Source: an uncultured Gammaproteobacteria bacterium (GTDB taxonomy: Bacteria; Patescibacteriota; Patescibacteriia; UBA2196; GWA2-42-15). Taken from it: 64,000 bases of DNA. Below are positions 35,061 through 63,768 of the stretch, one piece after another. A program made the translations under genes and the position numbers. The first letter of the stretch is position 1. Each line of letters starts with the position of its first letter. The DNA lies in the NCBI GenBank assembly GCA_964573135.1, contig CAZNIO010000001.1, positions 28,612 through 92,611 on the forward strand, given 5' to 3'. Below the pieces are notes generated by a model. That model did not search any database. It was not told the DNA's origin and saw nothing but the letters and a program-made list of their open reading frames with translations.

Positions 35061-35108
35061 ATAATTTTATATTACCACTTTACCGCCCAAAATCAAGCAA
35101 AACAAAAA

Positions 35109-35474
35109 CCCAAGCAGGTTATAAGCCGGGTTCTGTCATATCCCGGCACAAAGCCGGGATCGGATGGTCATCTATCTAAACGAGCTACCATTTGTGCTCT
35201 TGCACCAGGCAGGGTTTACCGCGAGACTACGTCACCGTAATCAAGTGTGAGCTCTTACCTCACATTTTCACCCTTACCTCAAAAGAGGCGGTTTACTTTC
35301 TGTTGCACTTTCCCTGGGTTTTGAGATTGTCCACAAAAAATTTCTCGAGAGAACTTCTTAATGTATCTCTTATACCCGGTCACTTTCACGACTGCCATGA
35401 CTCCCGAAAAACGGGAGGGTGCCCGGACTTTCCTATCTAGCTAAAAGCTAGATTAACCATCGTACCTACTTGAG
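35109..35474 (-). ncRNA. rnpB: RNase P RNA, bacterial type A
   Basis: Read on the minus strand: GGAAAGUCCGGGCACCCUCCC (P4 5' strand), GGUAAGGGUGAAAAUGUGAGGUAAGAGCUCAC (P10/11/12 consensus) and UGACAGAACCCGGCUUA (P4 3' strand). P1 closes with CUCAAGUAGGU / AACCUGCUUGGG, including GU wobbles. There is a P3 hairpin AUCUAGC-UUUU-GCUAGAU. Track ORFs 34979..35179(+) and 35192..35440(+) lie inside it and are spurious. Confidence 0.85.
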
Positions 35475-35513
35475 TAAAATTATATTACCAAATTATTACC
35501 TTTTTGTCAAATA

Positions 35514-39443: not shown

Positions 39444-40139
39444 TTATTTAACTGACAAATAACTTTTTAATAAAAATAGGGTTTCCTGCTTTAAATTTTC
39501 CCTTGCCCATTCTTTATCTTTATCACTCAAAACCTCGCCCAATCCCTGCAATATGTTCCGCTGATCAATCTTTTCTATAATCCTAATACTCTCCTCTAAT
39601 TGTTCTTTAATATTGTTACCTGTCCAAAATTTAAGAACATCCTCATCAATATCCCAACCATTTTTCGCGAAATAATAAAGGTCATAAATATCTCTCATTG
39701 CAATATTTTTACGCCCTGTCAAGGCTGATAATTTATTAGCAAAAAGTGATTCTTTTTTGGCACTAAGCATTGGAATTCCCAGATATTCCTTTGGCACATA
39801 TTCATTATTATTTTCACGAGTAGAAATTTCTATTTTAATATTATGATCTTCATCACCATAAGATAAAAGGAAAAATATTGTCCATCTTTCAATACATTTT
39901 TCTTTAATTATTCCGAACTCTTTTAATATATTTTCTATTTTTTTAAAAACTAACTCTTTATTCGGTTCACTCGCCTCAATTAAATCAAAATCCAAATCAA
40001 CCGAGAATCTGGGGAGATTATAAAAAAAGTAAGCACAAGTCCCACCCTTAAACCCTAGTAGTGATGAAATTTCAACATCACTATAAATACTTTTTAAAAT
40101 TTGCACCATTATTAATTGATGCTTTTCTCTATTTAGCAT
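39444..40139 (-). CDS. AbiEii/AbiGii-type nucleotidyltransferase toxin (type IV TA / abortive infection)
   Basis: FKGGTCAYFFYNLPRFSVDLDFD matches the GGTAL...RFSEDLDF signature of AbiEii (DUF1814). Confidence 0.65.
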   Translation of the reverse strand: MLNREKHQLIMVQILKSIYSDVEISSLLGFKGGTCAYFFYNLPRFSVDLDFDLIEASEPNKELVFKKIENILKEFGIIKEKCIERWTIFFLLSYGDEDHNIKIEISTRENNNEYVPKEYLGIPMLSAKKESLFANKLSALTGRKNIAMRDIYDLYYFAKNGWDIDEDVLKFWTGNNIKEQLEESIRIIEKIDQRNILQGLGEVLSDKDKEWARENLKQETLFLLKSYLSVK

Positions 40140-40698
40140 ATTTATAATATTTTTTTAATCTGGCCTCTAGCCGCTTGTTTTTATAAATTCTCGCCAATTG
40201 AGCACATTTTTCCCAGTCAATCTTTCTTAAATTATCAAAATGGTAATCTTTAAATAAATAAATCATATCAAGAAATGCACGCTCTTTAGTCGCTTGGCCG
40301 TACCCATTTTTATTCACAACCCCTTGGTTGTTCGCCAAAACTTCATTTTTTAATTTTCTAAATACAAATTTATGCCCCTCACACCTTAATGCCCTTGATA
40401 AATAACTTGCTACAAAAACAGCATTGTGGTGTTGAAATATAACCCCCTCTTCACGAAGTACGGTTTCAAAACTGATATAAGCTGGTGTATAGATACTTGT
40501 TGCGAATTCTTTGGGATTAAAATTTTTATCTTTACAGAATATTCCTTTCCTCAATCTAAATAAATTGCCCGTCTTTACATAATACGAAATTTTAGATTTC
40601 AAATTATCTTTATCTTTTTCTTTCCACAAAAAAGCTATATCCTTCGTCGTTAATACAGTTTTTTTAGATTTATAAAGCTTTAATAATGAATTATCCAC
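40129..40698 (-). CDS. AbiEi-type antitoxin / transcriptional regulator
   Basis: N-terminal ...KTGNLFRLRKGIF (AbiEi_4-like). Lies upstream of the AbiEii gene with an 11-nt overlap. Confidence 0.55.
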   Translation of the reverse strand: MDNSLLKLYKSKKTVLTTKDIAFLWKEKDKDNLKSKISYYVKTGNLFRLRKGIFCKDKNFNPKEFATSIYTPAYISFETVLREEGVIFQHHNAVFVASYLSRALRCEGHKFVFRKLKNEVLANNQGVVNKNGYGQATKERAFLDMIYLFKDYHFDNLRKIDWEKCAQLARIYKNKRLEARLKKYYKYAK

Positions 40699-40854
40699 AA
40701 ATTTAGTATAAAGGTAAGACTTTCTCTTACTTTCATTCTACGCTCCTTATTTTAGACTGTCAACTATGCTCATGGACTTGAACACTGAAATAATGCAAGA
40801 TAACTATCCATCATTGATGTATTAATTTAATAATAGCACATTAAACAAACGCAA

Positions 40855-40933
40855 CAAAAACAAAACCACCCCTTTTCTCAAATAACCTTATATAAAGACT
40901 AGCTGAAAAATGAAGTGGTTTTGATGTTTTTTT
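40855..40933. repeat. Repeat element copy 1: 29-bp core (CAAAAACAAAACCACCCCTTTTCTCAAAT) inside an ~80-bp bidirectional terminator-like hairpin
   Basis: Identical 29-mer at 40855-40883 and 48948-48976. The next ~50 nt are homologous but diverged (…TAAAGA..AGCT..AAAAT.GAAGTGGTT..G.TGTTTTTTTAT). AAAACCAC...GTGGTTTT pairing with flanking T/A runs. Confidence 0.7.
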
Positions 40934-41177
40934 ATATTAAATTTGTTTGTTTTTTGTTTTAGTTATGGACGGGATGCGAAGGCCTGTTTAATGTTGGGTT
41001 ACAATAACCCGATCGAGGAAAAATTTATAGATAATTGCCTCCGCATTCCGTCCTGGTGATCATTAAACATGTCAAACATTAGCACATTTAAAAAATTTGT
41101 CGATAACCCAAAAAACCAAGACACTTCTGCCCTAGCCTCCTATACCTATTAATTAGTTTTAGTAATGTAATATAAAA

Positions 41178-43607
41178 TCAAGCCGCCACCCTATGAACAT
41201 GCTGACTCAATCCGCGTGTCTTTCCTCTGGGGCTTGAATACCCATCATTAGCCCGAACTCTTTCTCTTTTGCCTTTTAGCATCTCTCCGAGCTCATCTGC
41301 CAACCGCCTCACAGCTCCACCAGTTAAATCTTCAATATCTAAATTTTTAACATCAACTATGCCAGACGTAATTGTGCCAAACTTTTCACACTCTTGACTG
41401 CTTCTTCTGGGATCATTCCTCCTAATATATTCTTTAATATGATTATATAAACTATCGGTACTTGGCTCATCTTCACCCTGCTGAGCAAAAGATATTTCAT
41501 ACGACTTCAAATATTCATCAATTTCGACCTTAAGTTCTTTATTAATCTCCTGCATTATCCTAATCGCAGTACTTTCATCTATGCCAGAAAAAGTAATCAC
41601 AAATTCCTCTCCACCAGTCATCCTGACCAATTCCGGCTTACTATTATCAGACGAATAACTAATACCACATTTTTCTCTAATATATTCTTCATCATTCAAT
41701 TTATCTTGAATAAATTGTGTTGTTTTTAATAAAACAATATCACCCATAATATGCCCGCCAACATTATTTACTGCACGTAAATTATCAAAATCCAATGCAC
41801 ACACAGAAAAACTCTGTTTTTTCTCTAAGTTCTCCTCTTTCTTATTTTCCCTAATAACATTATTAATTTTAGGTACTATAATCTCATCGAAATAATAGCC
41901 ATTTTTAACGCTTGTCAAAGATTCAACATATAACCTTTGCTGGATATTAAAACACTCTTCCTTCAGGCGAATCAATAATTCATCTATTTTCTGTTTATCC
42001 GCGCCGCTCTTCTCAATATATCTCCTAGCCAATCTTTCCGCTAATCTTATCTTTCTTTTATATACGTCATTAATTAATACCGCCTCTCCCTCTTCATCTC
42101 TAGCTACTAACTCTGACTGTCTTTTTGTTTCTTTAAAAATCTCCTGAAAATCAGCCACAAAACGCGGATCGCCCTTTATCCCCTCTCTTGCTCCTTCAAT
42201 TTCATTGCTGGGTATTTCCTTATCCAGATTATCGGGATCAAAATAGCCTACGCTATTCTTCTGATATATTTTCTGCTCTTCTTGTATTACATTGGCTTGA
42301 TTTAAAAACCTAGCTGCTCTTTCTCGATAGAGACCATCTATCAGGCTGTATAGCTGGTCTCTATCTTCTTCAAGCAACCCTTTGCCCACCTTCTCCTCAC
42401 CATATTTCAATATCTTACGTCGAAAATCATAATAGGTTATTTTTTCATTAAATACAATTCCATCGTCCTGCATTTGCGTACAATCAGAAAAAACATCATG
42501 GAGTATTACTTTTGAAACAAATTCTTTTTCACCATTCACCCGCTGATATATAAGCGACAAATCTCTTTCATTGAGATAACTCTTATCTTTACCACCCTTA
42601 AAATCCACCGTTAATGCTCCAAGTGTTATCGTGCCATTCTCCAATTTAAATCTCCCCCTATATTCACCTAAAATTTGAAGAACCTCATCGTCTTGCATGC
42701 TATCAATTCGCTGTTTGGCTTGGGGATGAGGCGGGTCAAGCAATACTTTCAACATCTCAGCAATCTTTCGCTCATCAATAATACCAGCGTCAAATAACTC
42801 TTTAACGGCCTTTTGTGCTTCTTCATTATTCTTAAATTGATCCTCAAGGGCGTCAGCCCTTTCCTCAAGAGTTATCCAATTAAGCTCATTTCTAACATCA
42901 AAATCTTCTTCAACTTCAGTATCGCGAAGTTTTGCGTCATCTTCATACATTTGATTAAATTCATCAAACATCTTATTTACTGCAATTTTAACTTGTTCTC
43001 TTACGCTATTAGCGTAAGAGCTGGTAGTCCCTTCACCCCCGAATTCTTTAGGATAAGTTGCCATGCTCAATTCTTCCCCGCCTACCCTCATACTATTCTC
43101 TGCATTAGCCAGCAGCTTATCAGCCACCACTAAAAGCTCCCAATTGCCAAACTCATGTCCAACCGCGTTATTCGAAGACTGGAAATAGTCAATATCTGTA
43201 TTAATAAAACTCAATCCATTTTCCTCTTCAGCGTCTTTTATCATACGCGCAGTAGAATAAAGACCGGCTTCACGCGTGTAAAGTCGAGTCAACTTATTAT
43301 CCCTATCCGCTACTTTATTCAATTTCTCTAATAGTGAAGTCAAAAGAACCTCACCCTGGTTATCACCATCTTCCAAATTCCAATTCTCAAAAACTTCCTT
43401 TATATCATTCTCCCCAGGTTCTTCAAGCCCATATTTAATTGCTATTTCTTTTCTTAAATTATCCACTTTTTGATTAATCTTTGTTTTCAATTCCTGGCTA
43501 ATTTCCATAGAAGTTTCGCGAGCACTAAAACCACACTTCTCTAATTGGCCTAGAGTTATAGGTTTCTCTTCATCAATTATCTCTTTTCTTTCTCTTATTC
43601 CTTCCAT
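41178..43607 (-). CDS. Large soluble protein with two GGDEF-like (nucleotide cyclase / palm) domains
   Basis: C-terminal domain: ALDFDNLRAVNNVGGHIMGDIVL...RMTGGEEFVITF (DxD...N..GH..GD...R.GGEEF). N-terminal degenerate copy: TDIDYFQSSNNAVGHEFGN...RVGGEELSMA. No TM segments and no recognisable sensor domain. 809 aa. Confidence 0.6.
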   Translation of the reverse strand: MEGIRERKEIIDEEKPITLGQLEKCGFSARETSMEISQELKTKINQKVDNLRKEIAIKYGLEEPGENDIKEVFENWNLEDGDNQGEVLLTSLLEKLNKVADRDNKLTRLYTREAGLYSTARMIKDAEEENGLSFINTDIDYFQSSNNAVGHEFGNWELLVVADKLLANAENSMRVGGEELSMATYPKEFGGEGTTSSYANSVREQVKIAVNKMFDEFNQMYEDDAKLRDTEVEEDFDVRNELNWITLEERADALEDQFKNNEEAQKAVKELFDAGIIDERKIAEMLKVLLDPPHPQAKQRIDSMQDDEVLQILGEYRGRFKLENGTITLGALTVDFKGGKDKSYLNERDLSLIYQRVNGEKEFVSKVILHDVFSDCTQMQDDGIVFNEKITYYDFRRKILKYGEEKVGKGLLEEDRDQLYSLIDGLYRERAARFLNQANVIQEEQKIYQKNSVGYFDPDNLDKEIPSNEIEGAREGIKGDPRFVADFQEIFKETKRQSELVARDEEGEAVLINDVYKRKIRLAERLARRYIEKSGADKQKIDELLIRLKEECFNIQQRLYVESLTSVKNGYYFDEIIVPKINNVIRENKKEENLEKKQSFSVCALDFDNLRAVNNVGGHIMGDIVLLKTTQFIQDKLNDEEYIREKCGISYSSDNSKPELVRMTGGEEFVITFSGIDESTAIRIMQEINKELKVEIDEYLKSYEISFAQQGEDEPSTDSLYNHIKEYIRRNDPRRSSQECEKFGTITSGIVDVKNLDIEDLTGGAVRRLADELGEMLKGKRERVRANDGYSSPRGKTRGLSQHVHRVAA

Positions 43608-43846
43608 AACACCAACTAATTATCTGATAAAACCAACTTTTCCACCAATTGCCAAAAACCAGCCTCATCCATTTGCATAAGGCTATCCTTATCATCAATC
43701 TTCTCTGTTTCTTCAACTAATATTTGCAATAGTTCTTCATTACTCATGCGTTAATAGTAGCACATTAACCAAGTCTGACAATTTATTGGTGGCTTATTAA
43801 CACTGCTACCAAGCAGGATAATTATTGCGCTTAAAATTATAATAAA

Positions 43847-46800
43847 TTATTCAAACAACCCCTTAATATCATCCCATGTCAATTTGGTAAACAAATCCTT
43901 ACTCTCACCAACAAGACGATCAAAAAGAAGTTTCTTTTTTTCTTGAAGTTTTACAATCTTTTCTTCAATGGTTCCTTTGGTTATCAAGCGATAAACATTT
44001 ACCGAATTCTTTTGGCCAATTCGGTGAGTACGATCTATGGCTTGATTTTCAACACTTGGATTCCACCAGGGATCAAAAATAATTACAGTGTCAGCTGAAG
44101 TTAAATTTATGCCTGTTCCACCAGCTTTTAAACTAATTAAAAAAACCTTTAGGTTGTTATTTTCATTAAAATCATCAATCAACTCCTGCCTGTTCCTTGT
44201 TTTACCAGATAAATAGTGATAATTAATCTTCTTTTTATCCAATTCCTTACCCAAAATATCAAGCATTTTCGTGAACTGGCTAAATACTAAAACTTTTCTT
44301 TTGTTTTCAATAATTTCGTCAATTAGCTCCAAAAACATATTTAATTTTGATGATTCGTATTTTGTATAATCATCATCTTTTAACAACAGAACAGGATGAT
44401 TGCAAACCTGTCTTAATTTTGTCAATCCAGCTAAAATATGAATTCGTGATTTATTAAAGCCTTTTGTTTTTACAGTTTCAAAAATTTCTGATTTTACATT
44501 TGCTAAAATTTCCTGATAAAGAATATTCTGTCCTTTGCCTAAATGACAGTGGCTCATTTGCTCCACTTTTGGCGGAAGTTCTTTTAGCACCTCGGATTTT
44601 GTACGGCGCAACATAAAACATTCAATTTTTTTACGCAAATTATCAAGAGCAAGCTTGTTATTGTGTTGCATAATCGGTTTTTCGAACTTCTTGGCAAACA
44701 ACCGATATGATCCCAAAAATCCCGGCATTAAAAAATCAAAAATAGACCAAATTTCTGATACGCTATTCTCAAGCGGCGTGCCAGTCAAAGCCAAACGATA
44801 ATCAGCATTAACTTTTTTTACTACTTGCGCATTCTTTGTGATATGATTTTTAATAAACTGTGCCTCATCTAAAACACAATAATTAAATTTAATTTTTTGT
44901 TTTTCATAAATTGCACTATCTTTTTTTATGGTTGCATAACCCGTAATGATTAAATCATAATTTTTTATTTTTTTTATTATCTTCTCTCGCTCTAATGGAT
45001 TTCCATCAATCACAATCGTTTTTAATTTTGGAACAAACTTTTCTGCTTCATTCTGCCAATTATAAAGCAATGTTTTTGGGCAAATGACAATTGACGGATT
45101 GCCCTTAACTTTTTCTTTTTCCAATAAAACCAAGGCCTGCAAAGTTTTACCAAGACCCATATCATCAGCCAAAATTCCGGCAAATCTATATTTGCGCAAA
45201 AAATAAAGCCAGTCAACTCCCTCCTTCTGATAATCACGCATAATTCTGTCAAGCTTTGCGGGCAACTTAATTTTTTTAACCGACTTGCCGTTTTGTGCTT
45301 CTTTTATAAAATTATTAAAACTTTTCTGTACCTTGGCATTATAATATTCAGATTTTGTAAAAACATTTTCAAGTTCCGGTGCATGGTATAATTTACCTTC
45401 AAATCCACCCTTTTCCCGTGCGTAAAAACTTTCAAGCATTAAAACAAACCTCTCCAGCTCTTCTAAATTTGTAATTTTAAGCATCCGTCCGTCATCCATT
45501 TTTATAAATTCTTTTTTATCCTCAACATATTTTCTCAAGTCTTCCAGCCTAATTTTTTCGTCCCCACAATAGCAACTAACATCAAAACCAAGCCAATCAT
45601 TTTCAGCATTCAAGTCCACATCAAAATCAGCCTTAAAATTTGCTACAGTAAAACTAAATTTATCACCAATGAATTCAATTTTATAATTTTTCTTATTAGC
45701 GAATTTTTCCAAATTGTCCCAATGCTTTGTAAAATATTTGAATATCTCTTTTTCTCCTTCCAGCTTACACTCAACTCTTTTTTTAAATCCATAATCTTTG
45801 TGAAAAAAATAAAAATGCTTATAAATCTCTATTTCTTTTTTCTCATCCACCAATCCATAACTAATATTCTTTTTACTTATGCCAATAACATATTTATCCA
45901 ATCCAGTCCTGCTAAAAGTATCCATACCCATATTGCGGTAACGGTTGACTGACTGACCCACATTTATTTTTTTAAACCCATAATCAACGCCTGCCTGAAT
46001 TTCCAACAAATCTTTTTTACTATCATAATCCACCACTACACAAGGTTTTGCTTCTGTAAATTCTTCAATTTCAAAATTTTGCGTTAAATCAGTTTGAAAA
46101 TCAAAACATTTATGACAATCTTCAATAATTTTATTTAATTCAAGAATCTCTTCCTGCTCAAGCATTGTTTTAAAATATCTTTCATTTCCAAAATGATAAC
46201 CCGTTCTAATTAAATCTATGCGTGACAATATTTTAACCAATGGATTAGTCAACTGATAAAAACCGATAGATTTGTCTTCAATCTTTATAAAGCCATCGCT
46301 GTAAAATAAAAATACCAATGGATCAACTTTTTTGTACTTGTCATCAAGTTCAAAAACAAATTCCTTCTTCAGTCTTTCGTTAAACTCATATTTTACATCC
46401 TCCAATTTTAACAAAATTTTAATTTTGTTGTCATCGGCTACCGGAGAAAATGTCAACAAATTATCAGCAGTGTGCCTGTTCCAATATATTTTCAACTTTG
46501 AATTTCGCAAAATATTAAATAATTTTTTATAATCAATATCGCCGTGATAAACAAAAGATAATTTTCGTAAAAACTTAAACAATTCTTTATGTGGCCCATC
46601 CAAATCATATTGCCTGAGCATCACGCTGGGATCCGTCTCGGATCCGCTATTTTTTTTCACTCGAATATCGGAAAGAGTATTTTTCCCATATCCATCTTCT
46701 AAAATAACATAATAGCTATCCGGGTTAAATCGTTTCTTTTTTATTGGGCTACATTGCGATGTCTCTAAACCATTACGAACATCCACCCCTTTGGCGGCCA

Positions 46801-47374
46801 AAGCTTTGATTAATCCATCTACGACCCCGTCAGGCGCATCTCCAATATCAAGCATACTTTTAAATTCATCCAAAAGTTCTTCTTTGGTTCTATTCTGTCT
46901 ATAATCATCTATTTCTTCAAACTCGCCTTCAACAATATCATCATCAAATTTAACTTTTCTCAATACTTTATCTCCTCCGTAATTTTCAGCTTTAACTTGG
47001 CTATTAATCCAATGAATCAAATCATTTCTTATTGTAGCTCTTCTTAAAACAGAATTATCCATAAACTCTATATAAAAATCTATAAACTCCAATCCAACAG
47101 CTGCGATATGCTTGCAAGCGTCGCCATAAGGACAATCACAATCCATTTTTCTAAAACTATTTTTTTTAAAATCAAAAAACAGACTAGTTGAATAATCATC
47201 ACTGCCTGCAACTTCACTGCGAATCTCAATTTCACTGTCAATCTCGGATGGAAAAACTTTTAAACTCAAAACATTGCCTGAATGATAATATCCGACTCCG
47301 CGACTAAATATATGAGATTCAAAATTTAATTTTAAATTGTTTTTTAACGACTTTTCACTAATTATATGAAACAT
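43847..47374 (-). CDS. SNF2-family helicase with an N-terminal SWIM zinc finger
   Basis: SWIM: CDCPYGDACKHIAAVGL. SNF2 ATPase motifs: GLGKT (motif I), DEAQFIKN (motif II), LTGTPLENS, and the helicase-C GGTGINLTSADTVIIFDPWWNP...QAIDRTHRIGQ. 1175 aa. Confidence 0.8.
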   Translation of the reverse strand: MFHIISEKSLKNNLKLNFESHIFSRGVGYYHSGNVLSLKVFPSEIDSEIEIRSEVAGSDDYSTSLFFDFKKNSFRKMDCDCPYGDACKHIAAVGLEFIDFYIEFMDNSVLRRATIRNDLIHWINSQVKAENYGGDKVLRKVKFDDDIVEGEFEEIDDYRQNRTKEELLDEFKSMLDIGDAPDGVVDGLIKALAAKGVDVRNGLETSQCSPIKKKRFNPDSYYVILEDGYGKNTLSDIRVKKNSGSETDPSVMLRQYDLDGPHKELFKFLRKLSFVYHGDIDYKKLFNILRNSKLKIYWNRHTADNLLTFSPVADDNKIKILLKLEDVKYEFNERLKKEFVFELDDKYKKVDPLVFLFYSDGFIKIEDKSIGFYQLTNPLVKILSRIDLIRTGYHFGNERYFKTMLEQEEILELNKIIEDCHKCFDFQTDLTQNFEIEEFTEAKPCVVVDYDSKKDLLEIQAGVDYGFKKINVGQSVNRYRNMGMDTFSRTGLDKYVIGISKKNISYGLVDEKKEIEIYKHFYFFHKDYGFKKRVECKLEGEKEIFKYFTKHWDNLEKFANKKNYKIEFIGDKFSFTVANFKADFDVDLNAENDWLGFDVSCYCGDEKIRLEDLRKYVEDKKEFIKMDDGRMLKITNLEELERFVLMLESFYAREKGGFEGKLYHAPELENVFTKSEYYNAKVQKSFNNFIKEAQNGKSVKKIKLPAKLDRIMRDYQKEGVDWLYFLRKYRFAGILADDMGLGKTLQALVLLEKEKVKGNPSIVICPKTLLYNWQNEAEKFVPKLKTIVIDGNPLEREKIIKKIKNYDLIITGYATIKKDSAIYEKQKIKFNYCVLDEAQFIKNHITKNAQVVKKVNADYRLALTGTPLENSVSEIWSIFDFLMPGFLGSYRLFAKKFEKPIMQHNNKLALDNLRKKIECFMLRRTKSEVLKELPPKVEQMSHCHLGKGQNILYQEILANVKSEIFETVKTKGFNKSRIHILAGLTKLRQVCNHPVLLLKDDDYTKYESSKLNMFLELIDEIIENKRKVLVFSQFTKMLDILGKELDKKKINYHYLSGKTRNRQELIDDFNENNNLKVFLISLKAGGTGINLTSADTVIIFDPWWNPSVENQAIDRTHRIGQKNSVNVYRLITKGTIEEKIVKLQEKKKLLFDRLVGESKDLFTKLTWDDIKGLFE

Positions 47375-47416
47375 TGTATCTGCTAGACAAGTCTATAAAT
47401 TAAGATTGTGCTAGGC

Positions 47417-48649
47417 TTATATATAACGATAATCTATATACTTAATTAAATTATCCTGATAATTAAAATCCAAGTTAACAACCATAGTTTTTTTAATATT
47501 GCCCTCTCTCTCAATAAAATTTTGTAAAATCCTAGTGTCAATTGGCTTAATAAGCTTTTTGTATTTAGCTTCCACTAATATAATTTTTGCTTTTTCTTCA
47601 ATAATAAAATCAATTTCTGTTTTATTAATAGTACGATAAAAAAATATTTTATTTTTTGCTTTATTCTTTAACTCCAAAAAAACAAAATTCTCAAATATAC
47701 TACCTGCGTCTTGCCTGCTTGTCAAATCCAAAAAATTTCCTAAAATGGCATTGCGAATTCCTAAGTCAAAAAAATAGATTTTAGGCATTTTGGTGACTTG
47801 CGCCCTTATGTTTTTTCTAAAAGGCAGAACTTTGTCTAAAACAAAAGTGAATTCTAAAAGATCTAGATATTTTTCCGTGTCTCTGCGCGAAATTCCGATT
47901 GTATTGCTTAATTCATTAACATTTAATAAATTTCCGATCTGAGAAGCTAAAAGTTTCATCAAACCGTTAAAATGAGCAATATTTTCAATTTTACCAATGG
48001 CCCTGATATCTTTATTAATATAAGTTCCAACATATTCATCCAACATTTTTTCCTTTAACGTTTTATTTTTTTGCAAAGCTATTGCAGGCATTCCCCCGTA
48101 AACCAAATATTCACTTAAATTATTGTCAAAATTTCTTCTGATATCCAGCGGCAAATCTTGCTTTTTAAAATAATTTAAATAAGGAAAATTTTTAAAAATC
48201 AAAAATTCTTCAAAATCCAAAGGATTAACTGAAAATGAAACCTTGCGTCCGGCTAAAGAATCCTGAAACTTTGCTTTTAATTCCAAGCTAGACGATCCTG
48301 TAGTAATAATCTTTATTTTCCCGGCGTACTTATCGTAAAGGTGTTTTAAAAAATTAGACGGGTTGTCTAAATACTGAATTTCATCTATAAGAAAAAAACT
48401 TTTTTCCTTTGGCTTAATAACATATCTGAAAATATTTTCAGGATCATCATTCAAGGTGTCTAACACTTTCATTTCTTCCAGATTAAGATAAAAAATTTGT
48501 TCTTTTTTAATTTTTTTACGGATCAGTTCTTCCTCTATTAATTTCAAAAGGGATGTTTTGCCAACTTGCCTGGGGCCGTTTAAAATAATGATTTCTTTTT
48601 CAAAAAGCCAATTTTTAAGTTCTTTTATTATTTTTCGAGGATAAAGCAT
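47417..48649 (-). CDS. AAA-type ATPase, DUF4143 family
   Basis: Walker A ILNGPRQVGKTSLLK, Walker B FLIDEIQY, then a DUF4143-like C-terminal region. 410 aa. Confidence 0.65.
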   Translation of the reverse strand: MLYPRKIIKELKNWLFEKEIIILNGPRQVGKTSLLKLIEEELIRKKIKKEQIFYLNLEEMKVLDTLNDDPENIFRYVIKPKEKSFFLIDEIQYLDNPSNFLKHLYDKYAGKIKIITTGSSSLELKAKFQDSLAGRKVSFSVNPLDFEEFLIFKNFPYLNYFKKQDLPLDIRRNFDNNLSEYLVYGGMPAIALQKNKTLKEKMLDEYVGTYINKDIRAIGKIENIAHFNGLMKLLASQIGNLLNVNELSNTIGISRRDTEKYLDLLEFTFVLDKVLPFRKNIRAQVTKMPKIYFFDLGIRNAILGNFLDLTSRQDAGSIFENFVFLELKNKAKNKIFFYRTINKTEIDFIIEEKAKIILVEAKYKKLIKPIDTRILQNFIEREGNIKKTMVVNLDFNYQDNLIKYIDYRYI

Positions 48650-48947
48650 ATTTTTATAGTTTAATCTATTAGAATAAAATGTTAAAACTTATACAATAAT
48701 TTTAACACTTTATGTTAAAATTATCAATATCTTCTAAAAATAATTATCACTCGGCTATTCCAATAATCCAAATCCCTGCTTTCGCTCATATTAAAATACC
48801 AGCCAAGTCCCAAAAATTAGGCTAAAACTAGCAAACTCCATATTCCCGCTGATCGCTGGCTCAGTGGTCTCATCAGAGCCACAAAGCCAATAAAACAAGA
48901 TTAATAAATCCATAAATTCGTATAAGCTCCTTATAATTTACCGTCAG

Positions 48948-49029
48948 CAAAAACAAAACCACCCCTTTTCTCAAATGATCTTTTCGTAAAGATCAGCTAA
49001 GAAAATTGGAGTGGTTCTGGTGTTTTTTT
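48948..49029. repeat. Repeat element copy 2 (same 29-bp core and terminator-like hairpin as 40855-40933)
   Basis: See copy 1. AAAACCACCCC...GGAGTGGTT pairing followed by TTTTTTT. Confidence 0.7.
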
Positions 49030-49432
49030 ATGTTTGTACATTTCGTCTTCTTAAAGACGAAGGAACCGAGAATTTTTTTATTTTTATATTAATAACGAAA
49101 CGCGGCACCAAATACCGAATTGCTTACAGCCACGTCTACACTAGCCGCGCTCCGTTATTTTCGATTATATAGTAGCCAAAGCGGCATCATCTGGGCATTG
49201 TCTCAAACAGATACGGGAGGGTATATATGTGAGACAAAGGATACATAAGATGATGCCAACTTCGGCAAATTTCGCGAGCGTGAGGGCTATCCATTACTGT
49301 TCAACGAGGTCTTAACCGCGCCCTTTCTAATTCAAGACCAACCACATGGCAAAACAAGGGCTCCTCACGCTCACATTTCATCTACGGCAACATTACCAGA
49401 TTCTTAAAAAATGTCAATAGCCACGTAACAGC

Positions 49433-49458
49433 CAAAAAGCCCCGTCATTGACGGGGCT
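49433..49458 (-). terminator. Rho-independent terminator downstream of the 1526-aa gene
   Basis: Minus-strand hairpin AGCCCCGUCAAUGACGGGGCU followed by UUUUU. It lies 25 nt past the stop codon. Confidence 0.65.
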
Positions 49459-49482
49459 CTAACATTAATTAGCTAATATTAG

Positions 49483-52400
49483 CTAAAAACACTTACACCA
49501 ATATATTAAATACTCAAGTACAAAGACCAATACACTTACAGCCACAATACTTAATATCAATAAATTAAATGCTACCTTGTCTTTCTTGGTTAATCCTAAT
49601 ATAAAGGCCAAGGCGCACAAGGCGTATATAATAATCACTCCTACCCAGCCCATCGGGCTAAATCCCTGGCAAAATATTAAGGTAATAACTGGAGCCAAGG
49701 TAGCGAGTACTGCCACGCTTGTCCTCCTGGCTACATCCGAAGTATCTGCCATTAGCCAATGCATTGCGAATAAGGTTCCAAAATATGCCAGCAATACTAA
49801 AGCCAAAGGCAAAGCCGATAAATTACCAATTAAGAATAAAATTAGAAATATTACTACCATGCCCAGTATACCTGGCCACCACCAAATCCAACTACCCTTA
49901 AATTGAAATTTATCATTTTCTTCATTTTCTTTTGGCTTATCAAATTTACTGTCTGTCTCTTCACCTGGATCAAATGCTCCACCTTCTTTATCATCTTCAC
50001 CAGATGCTAGGAAATAGTAATAAACAGCCAATACTATAACATGTACTAAAGCTACTAGCAACCACATCCACCATAAAGATCCATCGTCACACTTAGTTGT
50101 CCCTAAAACTTCTCCATTTTTATCATCATCGCCGGCTACCTCTCCATTCTCTTTCTCAGTTTCATCAGTTGTGGCAGCTGAAGAAACCTCAATTTCTTCT
50201 GGAGTGCCACCTGTTGGAGTACCGCCAGTCGTTCCTGTTCCACCCACAGCTCCTCCTTCTTCTCCGCCACCTGTACCGCCTTCTTCTTCCTCAGGCCCAC
50301 CGCCCACTCCTGCAAAAAAGATATCTTCAAGCATTGAACCCATGTCATTGGCTTGATCAAAGACTACTGATACTTGAGTTATTGCTTCACCTTCATTTTC
50401 TGCTAATACTTCAATTGCAAAAATTTGGTCACTGCCCACACTTAGGGCGCTCATATCCCAAGTAGCAACTTGGGTGCTGGTCGTATAGGAAGTCCAAGCA
50501 GGATTAGCCCCTACAAAACTCAACTTATCTTCAGGTAAATCTACGGTCAATATTTCATTTGTTAATATTATATTTCCCGTATTCGAGACGACGATTGTTT
50601 CGGTGTATACTTCACCTACCTCTTTAATTAAATCATATGTTAAATCCAATTCCACATCAGGCCGTGAGGTAAAGCTACCTCCACCGCCTCCGCTACTCTT
50701 TTCTTCTAAAATACATGAAGAATTACATTGATACCCATCTGGAGCACTACCATCACATTCTTCCTCTCCATTAACTATATTATCTCCACAATAACCAGAA
50801 TAGTAGTTATAGAAATCAATAGTAGTTGTGGGTACTTCTTCTACTAAGTTAAATGCATAATATAAGGGATCTATAGGATAAGTCTGTGACCAGCCATTCT
50901 GGGCTGTCTCAGACACCTTATAATCCCCGCTAACTAGCTCCGTAAACCTATAACAACCAAAATATTCAGATTGCTCATCACTCTCAGTACTCTGCCGATC
51001 CACTTCTACAAAGCTGCTCTCTTCCTCTCTCTCCAAAACCATTTCAAATCCACCTACCTTTTCTTCTCCATCATCCAATACCCCATTATTATTCACATCA
51101 TCATATTTACAGCCAAATATATATCCTTCTGGCCCATCGTAGTAGTTTATAAAATTAGTTGTGGTGGCTGTACCAGATATAAGGGTAAATGAACTTGAGG
51201 TTGCCGATAATGCAGTCCAATATGTTGGACTATCTTCAATTACCGTATAATCTCCAGGAATTAAACCATTAAATTCATAATATCCATCCACATCTGTTGT
51301 AGTTGTGGCCACTGGTATTGAATCCGAGCTAGAATTAAATAAATTAATCAACCAATCAGATTTTAATACCCTATCACCCGCAGTTTCTGAATCTCCATCC
51401 ATATCCTCATGCTTATACCCTGAAATGGTTGAATACTCTGTGTTATAATATGAAACTTCTACAGTTTGATCCGTTGCCACATTAAATGAATGACCCTGCA
51501 ATTCATCATTCAATAAATACCAATTATCTCTTACCTCTTCAGTAACTGTATGATTACCCGGTACTACGCTAAATAGAGCATAACCATTAACTGTTGTAGT
51601 TGCTGTAGAGCTAGTCGCTCCAGAATCAACCGTAAAACTCCAATCCGAAACTGGAAAAATATCACTATTTGGATTCTCAGTTGAACCATCCATATCTTTA
51701 TATTTCCAAATCTTAAGATATCCGGGTAAAATAGGGGGTCCGGTTCCACAACTGGCGTCAGCTACGTTTTGAGTTGTATCTGTACAATATGTATGTTCAG
51801 TTAAATTATTTCTTGTTTGCTCTCGCTGTGTTGAAGACACGCATGCTCCATCTACCCAGGGGGAATAATCACAATTACAATCTGTATCTGGCTCTTCTTG
51901 ATTATATACTCCGCCACATGTCGGATCATTCCATGAATAATATACTGTTGCATATCCGTCTGACACACACATTCGATCATCTTCACTTTCAACGCAATCA
52001 ATACCGCCACAGGCGTCATTTACCGCCCCAGGTGTACCTGAATCTCCTGCGCCATAAGTAGATGACGATTCACACCAATTGGATCCAACGTTATTATCCA
52101 AATTAGGATTTGAAAGAATCATTGATTTACCAGGATATTGAATCGGGAATCCGCTATTGTATTCTACTCTGTCAATTTCCACGCCATTGCAGGTCAAAAC
52201 TACCTCATCAGCTAAATTGCCAAGCACAAAGCTAGTATATTTATAATCACCAGATACCCCACCATTACTTCCAGTATCGTCGTCTCTGACAAGAACTATA
52301 TACCCGTCCTGAGAAATCAATAAAGATGAACCAATAATATGTAAATTTCCATTGTTATCACTTATCTCACACCCTTGTAAATCTAAAACCTTATCCGAAT

Positions 52401-54063
52401 TATTATATAATTCAAACCATTCACCATAAATATCTGAAACCTTGCCAGGATTTTGCATTATTTCATTAATAACTATATCCCCAGGCTGGATACCTTCTGG
52501 GGCATCTGTTTCATTATTATCTGTTCCACTATCACACCCTGGATCATCTGAATAATCAATTTTACCATCTATGTCATTGTCAACTCCGTCATTACATTGA
52601 TAAGTAATCACACACTGGCTAGAACATCCATCTCCGTCATCCAAATTCCCATCATCACATTCTTCTCCAGCCTCCAAAGTGCTATTACCGCATACTGGAT
52701 CAGATATTTCAATGATACATTGTGCTGAGCATCCGTCATCATCATCTGTATTTCCATCATCGCAGTCTTCCCCATCTTCTTGAATATTATTTCCACATTC
52801 TGGATCAGCTATTTCTACCACACACTGGCTAGAACATCCATCTCCGTCATCCAAATTGCCATCATCGCATTCTTCTCCTGCATCATCAATACTATTTCCG
52901 CATTCTGGATAATAGTTAGCAAAATCCTGATCTGCTACATCATTATGTCCTGCAATAGTCACTGCATAGCTTTCGCTTTGAGGATAAGTCTGCGCCCAAC
53001 CTAGTTGTGGGGTTTCAGATATTGTATAATCCCCGTCTTCCAAACCAGAAAAAGTGTAACATCCGTCAATAGTTGTTTGCGTAGTAGTTGCTACTCCATT
53101 ATTCAAATTTATTTCCCAATCTGATATCGTCAGCTCATCCTGATCAATTTCTCCGTTATTATTCACATCATTGTATTTACACCCGGAAACTGAACCATAC
53201 TCACAAATTTGTTGTGAAATATCTTCATAAATACCAGTCAAGTCATCACCGCTAGGTGCATGATGATATGTAGCTCCAGTAGTATTGGCAATATTTTGTA
53301 ACATTCCTTCATTAATATCACCGTTACTTCCCAGCCCAATCGTAAATATCTTATAACCCAAATTAGCTGCTTCTTCTGCTTTGCTTTCAGCATAAGTCAC
53401 ATCAGCCGGATACTCATCATAGCCATAACCATTTGGCTTGTTGGCCTTGCCATCAGTCAAAAGAATCATCACTTTAGTCGCCTGAGGATTGGCTCTTTCA
53501 GAAACTAATTCCCCAATACCAAAATTTATTGCATCACCAATATTAGTCGCACCGCCTGACACCAAACTGTCAACTGCACTCTTGGTTGCACTATGATTAC
53601 CGCTCAACGCCTGGTTAAGTAAAGCAAAATCACTAAAAGACACCAAAGCAGACTGATCGTTCACGCCCATATTATTTACAAAGGCTTTAGCTGCGTCTTT
53701 AGCTGCATTAATTTTACTCTGAGAGGCTGGGGTATAGCTATAACCAGTACAAGGTAAACCACTTTCCTGAGTAGCACACCACTCCTCACTTACACCTTCT
53801 TGTACATAGGGAACACAAGAGGGGGGCTCATACTCGTACCACTCGCATCTGCTTGGTGCTTCCCCGTCCGTCATACTCCCTGATCTATCCATAATCAAAA
53901 CCACATCAACTGCCACTTCACACAAATCATCTACTGGTTGCACCGCCGATGCCGTTGGCACAGGCACAGACGCAACGCCAGTAAAAAAAGAACCAAACAC
54001 CAACATAAAAATAGAAAAACAAGTGACGAGCTTGGATATCCTTTTTTTGGCTAATAAATACAT
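49483..54063 (-). CDS. Giant multi-domain surface protein with a C-terminal multi-TM anchor. Domains: VWA, Myxococcus-type Cys-rich repeats, lamin-tail domain and SdrD-B-like repeats.
   Basis: Signal-like N-terminus. VWA with a MIDAS motif (DVVLIMDRSGSM...T..G). Three tandem CGNxxxExGEECDDGNxDDGDGCSxQC repeats. LTD (GDIVINEIMQNPGKVSDIYGEWFELYN). Several G.Y.F.GL..GDY.V.E SdrD-B-like modules. A Gly-rich segment, then 4-5 C-terminal TM helices. 1526 aa. Confidence 0.7.
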   Translation of the reverse strand: MYLLAKKRISKLVTCFSIFMLVFGSFFTGVASVPVPTASAVQPVDDLCEVAVDVVLIMDRSGSMTDGEAPSRCEWYEYEPPSCVPYVQEGVSEEWCATQESGLPCTGYSYTPASQSKINAAKDAAKAFVNNMGVNDQSALVSFSDFALLNQALSGNHSATKSAVDSLVSGGATNIGDAINFGIGELVSERANPQATKVMILLTDGKANKPNGYGYDEYPADVTYAESKAEEAANLGYKIFTIGLGSNGDINEGMLQNIANTTGATYHHAPSGDDLTGIYEDISQQICEYGSVSGCKYNDVNNNGEIDQDELTISDWEINLNNGVATTTQTTIDGCYTFSGLEDGDYTISETPQLGWAQTYPQSESYAVTIAGHNDVADQDFANYYPECGNSIDDAGEECDDGNLDDGDGCSSQCVVEIADPECGNNIQEDGEDCDDGNTDDDDGCSAQCIIEISDPVCGNSTLEAGEECDDGNLDDGDGCSSQCVITYQCNDGVDNDIDGKIDYSDDPGCDSGTDNNETDAPEGIQPGDIVINEIMQNPGKVSDIYGEWFELYNNSDKVLDLQGCEISDNNGNLHIIGSSLLISQDGYIVLVRDDDTGSNGGVSGDYKYTSFVLGNLADEVVLTCNGVEIDRVEYNSGFPIQYPGKSMILSNPNLDNNVGSNWCESSSTYGAGDSGTPGAVNDACGGIDCVESEDDRMCVSDGYATVYYSWNDPTCGGVYNQEEPDTDCNCDYSPWVDGACVSSTQREQTRNNLTEHTYCTDTTQNVADASCGTGPPILPGYLKIWKYKDMDGSTENPNSDIFPVSDWSFTVDSGATSSTATTTVNGYALFSVVPGNHTVTEEVRDNWYLLNDELQGHSFNVATDQTVEVSYYNTEYSTISGYKHEDMDGDSETAGDRVLKSDWLINLFNSSSDSIPVATTTTDVDGYYEFNGLIPGDYTVIEDSPTYWTALSATSSSFTLISGTATTTNFINYYDGPEGYIFGCKYDDVNNNGVLDDGEEKVGGFEMVLEREEESSFVEVDRQSTESDEQSEYFGCYRFTELVSGDYKVSETAQNGWSQTYPIDPLYYAFNLVEEVPTTTIDFYNYYSGYCGDNIVNGEEECDGSAPDGYQCNSSCILEEKSSGGGGGSFTSRPDVELDLTYDLIKEVGEVYTETIVVSNTGNIILTNEILTVDLPEDKLSFVGANPAWTSYTTSTQVATWDMSALSVGSDQIFAIEVLAENEGEAITQVSVVFDQANDMGSMLEDIFFAGVGGGPEEEEGGTGGGEEGGAVGGTGTTGGTPTGGTPEEIEVSSAATTDETEKENGEVAGDDDKNGEVLGTTKCDDGSLWWMWLLVALVHVIVLAVYYYFLASGEDDKEGGAFDPGEETDSKFDKPKENEENDKFQFKGSWIWWWPGILGMVVIFLILFLIGNLSALPLALVLLAYFGTLFAMHWLMADTSDVARRTSVAVLATLAPVITLIFCQGFSPMGWVGVIIIYALCALAFILGLTKKDKVAFNLLILSIVAVSVLVFVLEYLIYWCKCF

Positions 54064-55214: not shown

Positions 55215-56459
55215 CTACTTACTGCATGTTCTAAATTCTGCTTTTTGGCTTGAAAGAGTCATTTCACCAGAACCAGCAAGATTAGGCCACTGTTTAATCA
55301 TGATTTGGAAATCAATTTTTTCATCTTCAGATAGATCTAAAATATCTTCCAAAGTGGCTGTTTCATAAGGGGTATATTCCCACCAATCTGCCTCTTCGTG
55401 CCCAAGTCTGGCACGATAAGCAACATTATATGACAAATCAGACTGCTGGCCGAATTCCATATCATCCTGGTATACATCTATGTAAAGACGCACATTACCA
55501 AGATTTCTAATGGTTGGCATGTCAACTGTTGCCATATCTTGATCGCCATGAGGACCATACCATTGATTCAAGTTATCAACAATTCCATAATTAACACCAA
55601 CTTGATCAAAATCAACTTCAAAAGACTTTAATTCCAAATAAGTCATTAAGTTTGTGACTTCATCTTTTAAAGTATTGTCGTTTTGAGCCTTAACATGAAT
55701 TGTATATTCACCTGCTGGATCCTCATAATAAAGGCTTCTTGTCCCACAGTAAACATATGCTTGTTCCTGAGGTAGTGTAACTCCGCAGATTTCATTATAC
55801 TCATCATTGGTATAAAAATGGGTTAGATTACCACTATGATAATCTTTAATATTAGCAGAATTAACACTGCCGTCAGCTCTAGTACCACAGAATAATTCTA
55901 GTCCATCTTCTTTTGTCAACTGAGTCAATTCAAGTTCGTTACCGAAAACGTCCTGAAAACAACCTGTGTCTGAAGGATCATAACCAGTTGAAGGTACATC
56001 CTGAGGTGTTAATACGCTTGTTGCGGGGCCACCATCGATTTGATCAGCTATAGTGGAATGAGGATGAAAGCCATATCCTATTGGATAATGAACTTCGTTA
56101 ACCCAAACACCAGCCAAATCTTGATTGCCACTACTGTTAGTTACACCATCTGTAACGATGGCACAAACTGTAAAAGGAACGCGACTTTCAAATAATCCGC
56201 TAGGACTTAGTTGAGTGAACGGATTAGTGCTATCATCTCTATCTGTATCATCCATATATGCAGGTGCCACTGATCCATTATCAAAACCTATCGCACTTTT
56301 TGTTTCCCATTTAGCCAAAATAATAGGAGCTGAGCCGCCTGTACCACCTTGCACAACGCTAGTCGGAACGGTAGTTGGAGTACCAGCTGCGACAGCAGGA
56401 ACACCTACCATACTAAATGTCAAAGCAAAAAGCAATGACATTATAAATAATTTTTTCAT
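55215..56459 (-). CDS. Hypothetical secreted protein
   Basis: 414 aa with a signal peptide (MKKLFIMSLLFALTFSMVGVPAVAAG). No TM elsewhere. Confidence 0.45.
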   Translation of the reverse strand: MKKLFIMSLLFALTFSMVGVPAVAAGTPTTVPTSVVQGGTGGSAPIILAKWETKSAIGFDNGSVAPAYMDDTDRDDSTNPFTQLSPSGLFESRVPFTVCAIVTDGVTNSSGNQDLAGVWVNEVHYPIGYGFHPHSTIADQIDGGPATSVLTPQDVPSTGYDPSDTGCFQDVFGNELELTQLTKEDGLELFCGTRADGSVNSANIKDYHSGNLTHFYTNDEYNEICGVTLPQEQAYVYCGTRSLYYEDPAGEYTIHVKAQNDNTLKDEVTNLMTYLELKSFEVDFDQVGVNYGIVDNLNQWYGPHGDQDMATVDMPTIRNLGNVRLYIDVYQDDMEFGQQSDLSYNVAYRARLGHEEADWWEYTPYETATLEDILDLSEDEKIDFQIMIKQWPNLAGSGEMTLSSQKAEFRTCSK

Positions 56460-56865
56460 AAATTTTATATTTACTAATAATATAATATATTAAAGTATCT
56501 CTCAAAGAGCGAAACGACCTACCAATTCGTAAAGAAACGAACTGACAGGTGAGATCTCTCTAATCTTTGAAAAGATAGCTAATATATTCTTTCTAAAGAC
56601 TGAATTCGCCAGATCTTGGAATACAGTCTTAAATAGCCCCGACCTTTCATTTTCCCGCATATGCGGGATAAATGGCTTAGGATAACAAATATATTCATAT
56701 TTCCTATCCCAAGCCATTAAAAAACACCCTTAGCTAAAATAATCTGGATAATTCATATATTATTGAATTATTCACATTATTTTTTCTAAAGGCGTTTATG
56801 TCTATATATTGCAGACGTTTTGTACCTATAATGAATTATTTAGTTGTAATTATTCAGTAAGTTAA

Positions 56866-57111
56866 TTAATAACTGTCATCCTCATAATTACTAACTTCTC
56901 GTAATTCACCGTGGTACCCGTCCGTAGCTTGGTCATACACTTTACAATGTAATATTATCTCCTGTTTGGTTAATGTAAGAATATTTAAAGATTTACATTT
57001 GGGACATTTCTTCTCTTCTTTGAGCATGCCTTCTATCTTAGCGATATTGGCAAAATGATAAAAACATTTTGCACAACGCCACATATACATATAGTTCTGT
57101 GCTTGAGACAT
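56866..57111 (-). CDS. Small zinc-ribbon protein (hypothetical)
   Basis: 81 aa with CxxC...CPKC pairs. Confidence 0.35.
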   Translation of the reverse strand: MSQAQNYMYMWRCAKCFYHFANIAKIEGMLKEEKKCPKCKSLNILTLTKQEIILHCKVYDQATDGYHGELREVSNYEDDSY

Positions 57112-57994: not shown

Positions 57995-58589
57995 AAGAAA
58001 CCTCCATAATTAAGAAGATTAAAATCCTCTGTTACTGTGATTTAATAAAACTATTAAAACAATAGTCTCACCTCCTTTCATATTTTTTGTGGGGTTTTTT
58101 TATATTTTTTTATTGGTTTTATTTGCTCTTTCAGTATACCAAACAGCCGATATAAGGCAAACAACGCATAAATAAAACAAAAAAACCTTTGTCTTATTCT
58201 TGTAAAATTAGCAACATTTTGCTAATCTATATATAGAACACAAGCCTAATTTACGTTGTTTTCTACTTTTCACATAAATATATAATAAAAAAATATAACA
58301 TCAAATAAGAAAGGAAACGAAATGAATGAAGTAACCATCTGTCGACTATGTGCAATAGGAGGGGCTATCATCCTAATAGCCACCTGCCTACTGACACGAA
58401 ATTACTCCGCATCCGCTAGAATAATAATTAGCTGCGGAGTGGTAGCAATTTTAGGAAGAACAAATTGCTTTTCATTGTTCTTCATCCACCACAAAAATAC
58501 AAATATAAAATCACCCGAGTAGGTCCGGGTGACCTTGCCCTAAAAAACCGTTAGAGAGAAGCCCTTCTCTTTTCTTTAACGGTTTTATA

Positions 58590-63462: not shown

Positions 63463-63768
63463 ATGAATACAAAAATTTTACAAACGGGATTCTTGCCACG
63501 TACTGTTTCTGTCAGTGATCTGCAAAAAAAAACAAAAAATATTTTTGCAGACATGACTGAGCAAGACTCACCCACCCTGGTGCTTAATCGCAACGAAAAA
63601 GTTGGTGTTTTACTAAAACCAAAAATTTACGAGGAACTAATGGAAGTATATGAAGATTATTTAGATGGGTTGGAATTAGCAAAAGCAGTTGAAAATAGCT
63701 CCGCAGCAGATATGGTGCCCTGGGAAAAAGTAAGAAAAAAATTACAAAAAGAAGGTAGATTGTCTTAA
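63463..63768 (+). CDS. Type II antitoxin, Phd/YefM family
   Basis: 101 aa. ...TLVLNRNEKVGVLLKPKIYEEL... is a Phd/YefM-like fold signature. It sits directly upstream of a RelE/ParE-like ORF. Confidence 0.55.
   Translation: MNTKILQTGFLPRTVSVSDLQKKTKNIFADMTEQDSPTLVLNRNEKVGVLLKPKIYEELMEVYEDYLDGLELAKAVENSSAADMVPWEKVRKKLQKEGRLS

Follow-up and report, generated by a model that had tools for sequence, protein, structure and literature searches.

A candidate structured noncoding RNA of no known class between a giant surface-protein gene and a defence-island-like gene set in a Patescibacteria genome

Introduction

What occupies a gap of 830 nt, crowded with inverted repeats, between two genes of a Patescibacteria genome? 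A sequence-only reading of this DNA had marked the interval 49030-49432 as a candidate large structured noncoding RNA of no recognized class, and several questions follow from it: do the stems exceed chance, on which strand and between which limits would such an RNA be read, does it belong to a known family, and could the same features arise without an RNA gene? All coordinates below refer to the window, that is, the whole stretch of 64,000 nt that was analysed, unless a locus of another genome is named. The literature on structured RNAs in Patescibacteria (the candidate phyla radiation) yielded nothing bearing on this region.

Results

The gap and its neighbours

The gap (48650-49482) is flanked by two minus-strand genes, encoding a giant surface protein, whose TAG stop codon lies at 49485-49483, and an ATPase (Table 1). 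Its largest open reading frame has 53 aa, in agreement with the earlier remark that it holds none of 60 aa or more, and a search for coding signal returned 3-9 stops in each of the six frames and no tblastn, blastp or Pfam similarity. The giant gene is closed by an intrinsic terminator that sits between it and the candidate RNA and whose U-run is present on the minus strand only. At the other end of the gap, a 40-aa ORF whose product has two hydrophobic stretches matched only itself in a search of 5.8 billion proteins, and it is uncertain whether it is a real gene or part of the RNA unit. A 64-nt AT-rich palindromic stretch upstream of the ATPase gene (48679-48741; ATGTTAAAA...TTTTAACA) is 84% identical to an intergenic stretch of a Parcubacteria genome (L008:1809-1872), and could be a common promoter or operator motif or a low-complexity coincidence.

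A defence-island-like gene set was observed at 39444-48649 on the minus strand. The AAA_14/DUF4143 ATPase matches the PADLOC candidate system PDC-S01 (E = 7e-91), an SNF2 helicase of 1175 aa matches the DpdE/ZorD models of PADLOC, and an 809-aa protein has a weak GGDEF match and no PADLOC match; an AbiEi/AbiEii pair adjoins this 8-kb ATPase/SNF2/GGDEF-like block. Elsewhere, the F-type ATP synthase operon contains genes for a Phd/YefM antitoxin and its ParE toxin partner (63463-63768 and the gene after it; L022:10001-10568), which separate the OSCP (delta) subunit gene from that of the alpha subunit.

Table 1. Positions of the candidate RNA, its predicted parts and the features compared with it
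Feature	Position	Strand	Details
RNase P RNA, class A (Rfam RF00010)	35106-35473	minus	165 bits
Second candidate small RNA unit	40847-41103	minus	
AAA_14/DUF4143 ATPase	47417-48649	minus	410 aa
ATPase promoter-like site	48727-48699	minus	TTGATA-17-TAAAAT with TG
40-aa ORF	48791-48913	minus	MDLLILFYWLCGSDETTEPAISGNMEFASFSLIFGTWLVF; AAGGAG ribosome-binding site; start 31 nt past the terminator U-tract
Long hairpin, presumed RNA terminator	48945-49027	minus	hairpin at 49027-48949, followed by UUUUGUUUUUG
H4	49042-49061	minus	8-bp hairpin with tetraloop
A/U-rich linker	49062-49090	minus	AAUAUAAAAAUAAAAAAAUUCUCGGUUCC; unpaired in minimum-energy and centroid folds
H3	49091-49159	minus	16-bp stem (2 G-U), 37-nt loop; pair probability 0.98
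H2	49175-49266	minus	rod-like hairpin, 8 bp (2 G-U) + 10 + 4 + 7 + 4 bp
H1	49274-49374	minus	12-bp closing stem GUGAGCGUGAGG/CCUCACGCUCGC (1 G-U), multi-branch junction
Promoter-like site	49390-49417	minus	TTGACA, 16-nt spacer ending TGG, TAATGT (extended -10)
Intrinsic terminator of the giant gene	49438-49458	minus	AGCCCCGUCA-A-UGACGGGGCU then UUUUU; perfect 10-bp inverted repeat, G+C-rich
Giant surface protein (VWA/SdrD_B)	49483-54063	minus	1526 aa

Excess of inverted repeats

Every stem named by the sequence-only reading was found in place. A 10-bp stem (GGCATCATCT, 49183-49192, with AGATGATGCC, 49248-49257) encloses a shorter one (TTGTCTCA, 49198-49205, with TGAGACAA, 49230-49237), and another of 10 bp (GAGCGTGAGG, 49276-49285, with CCTCACGCTC, 49363-49372) encloses GGTCTT and AAGACC; AATAACG...GCGGC (49091-49106) is complementary to GCCGC...CGTTATT (49144-49159), and TTCGTCTT-CTTA-AAGACGAA forms a tetraloop hairpin at 49042-49061. 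To estimate chance, the interval 49030-49432 was shuffled 1000 times with its dinucleotide composition kept. Perfect inverted repeats with loops of 3-100 nt and a stem of 8 bp or more number 4 in the real sequence and 0.45 in the average shuffle; for stems of 10 bp or more the figures are 2 and 0.031, and in neither class did any shuffle attain the real count. The excess of stems beyond chance is therefore confirmed, and the hairpins are real.

Strand, fold and base composition

Although the stems had been written on the plus strand, it is the minus strand that folds better. Over 49030-49432 the minus strand has a fold energy of -132.1 kcal/mol (z = -5.0) and the plus strand one of -99.8 kcal/mol (z = -3.0), and for 48940-49440 the minimum free energies are -173 and -127 kcal/mol, respectively. 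The latter interval holds 23 G-U pairs on the minus strand versus 6 on the plus strand, a count that is inflated in part because the minus strand is G+U-rich throughout the window; the wobbles fall within the high-probability helices of H1, H2 and H3. The shuffle-corrected z-scores, -6.3 on the minus and -4.0 on the plus strand for the 299-nt H1-H3 body, still favour the minus strand as the sense of the RNA. Over the predicted transcript (49383-48942) the fold reaches z = -9.0, and the RNase P RNA of the same genome, which served as an internal positive control, has z = -4.8.

When the whole window was scanned with correction for composition, the locus ranked second, after 56450-57000 on the minus strand. 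A tiled shuffle scan found 200-nt tiles at z = -3 to -5 in most gaps, and one at -11, versus -0.19 +/- 1.19 for coding control tiles. Since hairpin-rich gaps are this widespread, strong hairpins are a general trait of the intergenic DNA of this genome, and what sets the locus apart is that its GC content, size, promoter and terminator occur together.

Two other hairpin-rich gaps were seen. The most over-structured locus of the window (56460-57060, minus strand; minimum free energy -178 kcal/mol, z = -10.6) is a row of long near-perfect hairpins upstream of the gene for a 414-aa secreted protein, the first of the operon whose last gene is the giant gene; a 71-aa ORF called by the JGI pipeline (56502-56717) spans these hairpins, and a Zn-ribbon-like ORF of 81 aa lies at 56866-57111. 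The gap at 58295-58589, upstream of or beside a 175-aa gene, is hairpin-rich on both strands, with tiles at z = -4.7 to -6.3 and up to 42% GC.

With regard to base composition, the H1-H3 body has 47.2% GC and the RNase P RNA 46.7%, while the window has 35.5% and the remainder of the gap 30%. Among the 15 gaps of at least 150 nt that entered this comparison, only the RNase P gap and the present one contain 250 nt at 48% GC. Structured RNAs have been sought as GC-rich islands in the long intergenic regions of AT-rich genomes by the GC-IGR method (PMC6429828).

Promoter, domains and extent of the unit

Directly past the strong terminator of the giant gene lies a promoter-like site with its boxes at 49417-49412 (TTGACA) and 49395-49390 (TAATGT), from which transcription would start at about 49383-49381. 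Three of the six positions of its -10 hexamer agree with TATAAT. Over both strands of the 64 kb, TTGACA-N12-15-TGNTAATNT is matched twice where 0.05 matches would be expected by chance, a statistic that is post hoc and overstates the evidence, because the pattern was built from its own two matches. The second match belongs to the RNase P RNA gene, whose promoter (TTGACA-17 nt-TGgTAATAT, 35482-35510) ends 9 nt before the start of the Rfam match. The candidate site nevertheless bears a direct likeness to this promoter, which serves the only RNA gene of the window that is certain. On the plus strand no promoter-like site was found ahead of the body, which in that orientation would sit downstream of the long hairpin and a T-run.

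Three hairpin domains follow on the minus strand. The closing stem of H1 has a mean pair probability of 1.00, and within this domain an alternative GGUCUU/AAGACC pairing could make a pseudoknot with CCCUU/AAGGG. In H2 the pair probabilities are 0.85-0.99 and the apical loop is CCUCCC, which is anti-Shine-Dalgarno-like. The G-U pairs of H3 become A-C mismatches if the plus strand is read (88% complementary there), where separate stems of 7 and 6 bp stand in place of the continuous 16-bp helix of the minus strand. Among H1, H2 and H3 no similarity was found that would make them diverged tandem copies. The linker that precedes H4 has a comparable A-rich counterpart ahead of the second copy of the long hairpin (40852-40938).

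At the level of motifs this is the generic layout of a noncoding RNA gene, with a promoter-like site upstream on the same strand and a hairpin and U-tract downstream. The unit would be wider than the interval 49030-49432, running from the promoter at about 49417 to the terminator at 48945, with a predicted transcript from about 49383 to 48945, approximately 440 nt long, and it would take in as its terminator the element that the sequence-only reading had set apart as "repeat copy 2". The placement of the region between that copy and the terminator of the giant gene was accurate, the copy being the hairpin at 48945-49034 and the terminator that at 49438-49458.

A family of long terminator hairpins and a second unit

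The long hairpin has an 83% identical copy at 40852-40938 and a third in a Kuenenbacteria genome (L017:4720-4805), where it stands straight after the stop codon of a homologous giant gene, whose product also conserves the C-terminus of the giant protein (...YWC[KR]CF). The long hairpins are flanked by an A-tract and a U-tract. In the alignment of the three copies, compensatory double changes occur in 5 of the 32 pairs, and several further one-sided changes preserve G-U pairing in the sense orientation; these compensatory changes are confined to the terminator hairpin, the body being known from one sequence. When the three copies were made into a covariance model, they scored 104, 101 and 79 bits in sense and 41, 38 and 50 bits in antisense. 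The compensatory changes and the higher sense scores together identify the hairpin as a conserved, sense-specific RNA element, which is most simply read as a terminator. The model found no further convincing members in 275 kb, and a scan for one 20-mer of the long hairpin in metagenome contigs, a set from which the source contig is absent, gave three chance matches within coding genes.

The copy at 40852-40938 belongs to a second candidate unit, in which the short terminator of the upstream 809-aa gene, a TCGACA-16 nt-TAATGT site (41103-41076), a hairpin, an A-rich linker and the long hairpin copy follow one another. Its body is an 88-nt hairpin (GGACGG...CCGUCC) of 45% GC, and the fold of the unit has z = -5.9; when compared, the bodies of the two units were not homologous. 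The two hairpin copies of the window are direct repeats around the 8-kb block of PDC-S01-type ATPase, DpdE/ZorD-like SNF2 helicase and GGDEF-like protein, and could mark the borders of an inserted island.

Search for known families and relatives

With Rfam 15 at gathering threshold, RNase P was the only match in the whole window, and no family model reached that threshold in the region. At E<=10, the best match in 48600-49550 had 25.5 bits (threshold 55) and lay on the terminator of the giant gene, and no large-RNA family was listed within this interval. The sequence-only reading could not match the region to tmRNA, 6S or SRP RNA, and these were likewise rejected here, as Rfam at gathering and permissive thresholds and ARAGORN gave no match. 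Intron-containing tRNA genes have been reported for Patescibacteria; ARAGORN found no tRNA or tmRNA in the window even with introns of up to 600 nt and thresholds relaxed to 90%, and a tRNA gene with a group I intron was also rejected. Other candidates set aside were a hammerhead ribozyme (a CUGAUGAG motif at ~48870, but within the 40-aa ORF and with no Rfam match), a retron RNA (no gene for a reverse transcriptase in the vicinity), arrays of the TIGR or CRISPR type (tandem repeats absent) and HEARO/omega-RNA (no IscB, TnpB or HNH gene, the neighbours being the VWA/SdrD_B protein and the AAA_14/DUF4143 ATPase).

As for relatives of the body, phage and plasmid sequences yielded no relevant match to blastn in distant mode, and pattern searches of viral contigs gave zero matches or chance palindromes. 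Three IMG/VR contigs (L019-L021) share a hairpin, CAGTGAGGCATCATCTG...CAGATGATGCCTCACTG, an unrelated chance match to the H2 stem pattern. As proxies for nucleotide homology, a 50-aa ORF called by JGI inside the region and regarded as spurious, and the 40-aa ORF, were compared with 5.8 billion proteins, and each matched only itself. No paralogue of the body was found in the rest of the window and 18 kb of flanking contig (82 kb in total). A scan of genome contigs with the giant protein returned only relatives of at most 42% identity and no close species representative; the closest relatives of the giant protein have 50-59% identity over the best aligned segment. Downstream of giant-gene homologues the body was not found at nine loci (L014-L017 and L025-L029) of seven relatives among related Patescibacteria, where the gaps are short and AT-rich (11-29% GC) and have no similarity to it. 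The gap is covered by four independent assemblies, which agree with one another at 100% identity over its length. The sequence is found in JGI metagenome 3300005915 (contig Ga0075122_10000010, where the window corresponds to about 26618-90617) and likewise in SRR5581654, ERZ27315495 and 3300025586, and the NCBI copy of the contig measures 171 kb.

Discussion

A structured noncoding RNA of no known class is the best-supported reading of the region, because of its single-sequence statistics, GC content, promoter, terminator, strand-specific G-U pairs and absent coding signal, although near-perfect long stems are also compatible with young or neutral sequence. The most economical form of this reading is a stand-alone minus-strand gene for a lineage-specific noncoding RNA of about 440 nt and of no known family, and on this proposal our judgement is evenly balanced. 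According to this proposal, RNA polymerase would begin about 7 nt past TAATGT (near 49383), using a promoter with an extended -10 box of the type seen at the RNase P RNA gene, and the nascent transcript would fold into three self-contained GC-rich hairpin domains (H1, H2 and H3), after which the A/U-rich linker and the small hairpin H4 would come; the long hairpin and its U-tract near 48945 would end the transcript, giving about 440 nt. The stems and their excess, the strand asymmetry, the GC island, the promoter and terminator motifs and the conserved structure of the terminator are shown by the sequence itself, whereas transcription and a role in trans, regulatory or protein-binding, are inferred. 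The loop of H2, being C-rich, might for instance pair with Shine-Dalgarno sequences, but a search for duplexes between the unpaired segments and the 62 translation-initiation regions of the window gave no outlier target.

The region can also be read without an RNA gene. The region might be neutral or recently acquired DNA, a mobile-element or other foreign fragment lodged between the giant gene and an ancestral terminator hairpin, with palindromes that have no RNA function. In L017 the long hairpin directly follows the stop codon of the giant gene, and compared with that genome the ~455 nt between stop codon and long hairpin (49030-49482) look like extra material; moreover, the body has no homologues found, its GC content is atypical of the local intergenic DNA, its stems are near-perfect and the site adjoins a variable defence island (PDC-S01 ATPase, DpdE/ZorD-like SNF2 helicase and AbiE). 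We nevertheless consider this origin unlikely, though it has to be taken seriously: neither terminal inverted repeats nor a target-site duplication was seen, the 82 kb of this genome and the viral, plasmid and phage sets contained no other copy, and nearly all of the helix mismatches are G-U pairs of a single strand, a bias not expected of palindromes at the DNA level. The insert also brings exactly the layout of a gene, with its terminator, RNase P-type promoter and structured body. Still less can be said for a decayed protein-coding gene, which we hold to be very improbable. The GC content does approach the level of coding DNA, of which the giant gene (40%) is an example, but 3-9 stops per frame, the want of any tblastn, blastp or Pfam similarity, and a JGI 50-aa ORF that matches itself only all speak against such a gene, in which perfect inverted repeats of 10-16 bp would moreover be unexpected.

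Two other explanations assign the region to the mRNA of a gene on one side of it. As a 5' leader of riboswitch or attenuator type for the 40-aa ORF and the ATPase-SNF2 operon, with the long hairpin as a conditional terminator, it would have the order of a classical expression platform, since a promoter, a structured domain of 300 nt and a terminator hairpin are followed by AAGGAG about 10 nt and ATG about 30 nt past the U-tract, and the multi-branch junction of H1 is of aptamer-like size. However, hairpins of this family close a protein-coding gene in L017 and stand after another body at 40850-41068, and so behave as a generic terminator; besides, the ATPase has a good promoter-like site of its own (48727-48699), the 40-aa ORF has no homologues, and riboswitch, T-box and leader models were unmatched. 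No convincing anti-terminator pairing was seen, a possible alternative pairing of 6 bp found by eye being that of GUGGUU in H1 with AACCAC in the 5' arm of the terminator. Taken together, these points make a leader rather improbable. A 3' untranslated extension of the giant mRNA, that is, a stabilizing array of hairpins reached by read-through of the first terminator, would fit the position of the region directly downstream of the giant gene on the same strand, and strong hairpins do stand at many gene ends of the window. Yet a canonical terminator (10-bp G+C-rich stem, U5) comes between the stop codon and the body, a promoter-like site follows that terminator, and relatives have no such extension, so that we assign this explanation a small probability.

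If the preferred reading of a structured RNA gene is transcribed as predicted, it would be among the very few candidate regulatory or structural RNAs from this uncultured group, and its place between the giant surface-protein operon and the defence island would hint at a biology of host interaction or defence. Patescibacteria genomes are tiny and hold little non-coding DNA, so a gap of 830 nt with RNase P-like GC content and fold is unlikely to be filler. More speculative, and in our opinion doubtful, is the proposal that the RNA is the first known representative of a hitherto undescribed class of structured Patescibacteria RNAs of ~300-440 nt, which with the unit at 41103-40847 would make a family of RNA gene cassettes. 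If that were true, the cassettes would have conserved promoter and terminator ends around differing structured bodies, with a promoter of the housekeeping-RNA type, at the boundary of a defence island and beside the PDC-S01 ATPase and DpdE/ZorD-like SNF2 helicase. For the present, the worth of the locus is that of a well-delimited target in a single genome, with its strand, ends, promoter and domains defined by prediction.

Several known systems share features with the candidate. Like the REP/BIME elements, the long hairpin (48945-49034) is a palindrome that recurs in intergenic DNA, twice in the window and once in a relative, but only this terminator hairpin is repeated, whereas the 300-nt body is single-copy. 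Leaders of riboswitches and attenuators share with the candidate the sequence of promoter, structured domain, terminator hairpin and ribosome-binding site; unlike them, it has no aptamer model match, and its terminator is a generic repeated hairpin. The trans-acting sRNAs of the RsaE/RoxS type in Firmicutes have C-rich apical loops that pair with Shine-Dalgarno sequences. The candidate resembles them in having its own promoter and intrinsic terminator, a C-rich loop on a stable stem and an A/U-rich single-stranded linker, and differs from them in its length of ~440 nt compared with the 50-250 nt of typical sRNAs, in showing no homology and in having no target of outstanding complementarity in the window.

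The sequence-only reading had likened the region to OLE, GOLLD, ROOL and HEARO. These RNAs, to which raiA may be added here, are indeed similar to it in being long, GC-enriched, ORF-free regions of AT-rich genomes, in an accessory or defence-island context and with no assigned function. The likeness does not extend to the RNA itself, for which no Rfam match appeared at E<=10. ROOL, OLE and GOLLD are roughly 580-800 nt long, and the body of the candidate, at ~300 nt, is smaller; it consists of three independent hairpins, in contrast to the long-range multi-domain fold of the large ornate RNAs, and no family of homologues was found for it. HEARO adjoins an IscB, TnpB or HNH gene, and the candidate does not. 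Of the original description, a structured RNA outside the known families is the part best supported, while the comparison with the OLE type is not supported.

A further comparison is with the RNase P RNA that this genome itself encodes. RNase P is universal, whereas the candidate has no detectable relatives, and between the two there is no similarity of sequence or structure and no RNase P match at E<=10. Nevertheless, both have TTGACA, a spacer of 16-17 nt and TGgTAAT[A/G]T, both have 47% GC and a comparable size, and the fold z-score of the RNase P RNA (-4.8) is comparable to, or weaker than, that of the candidate.
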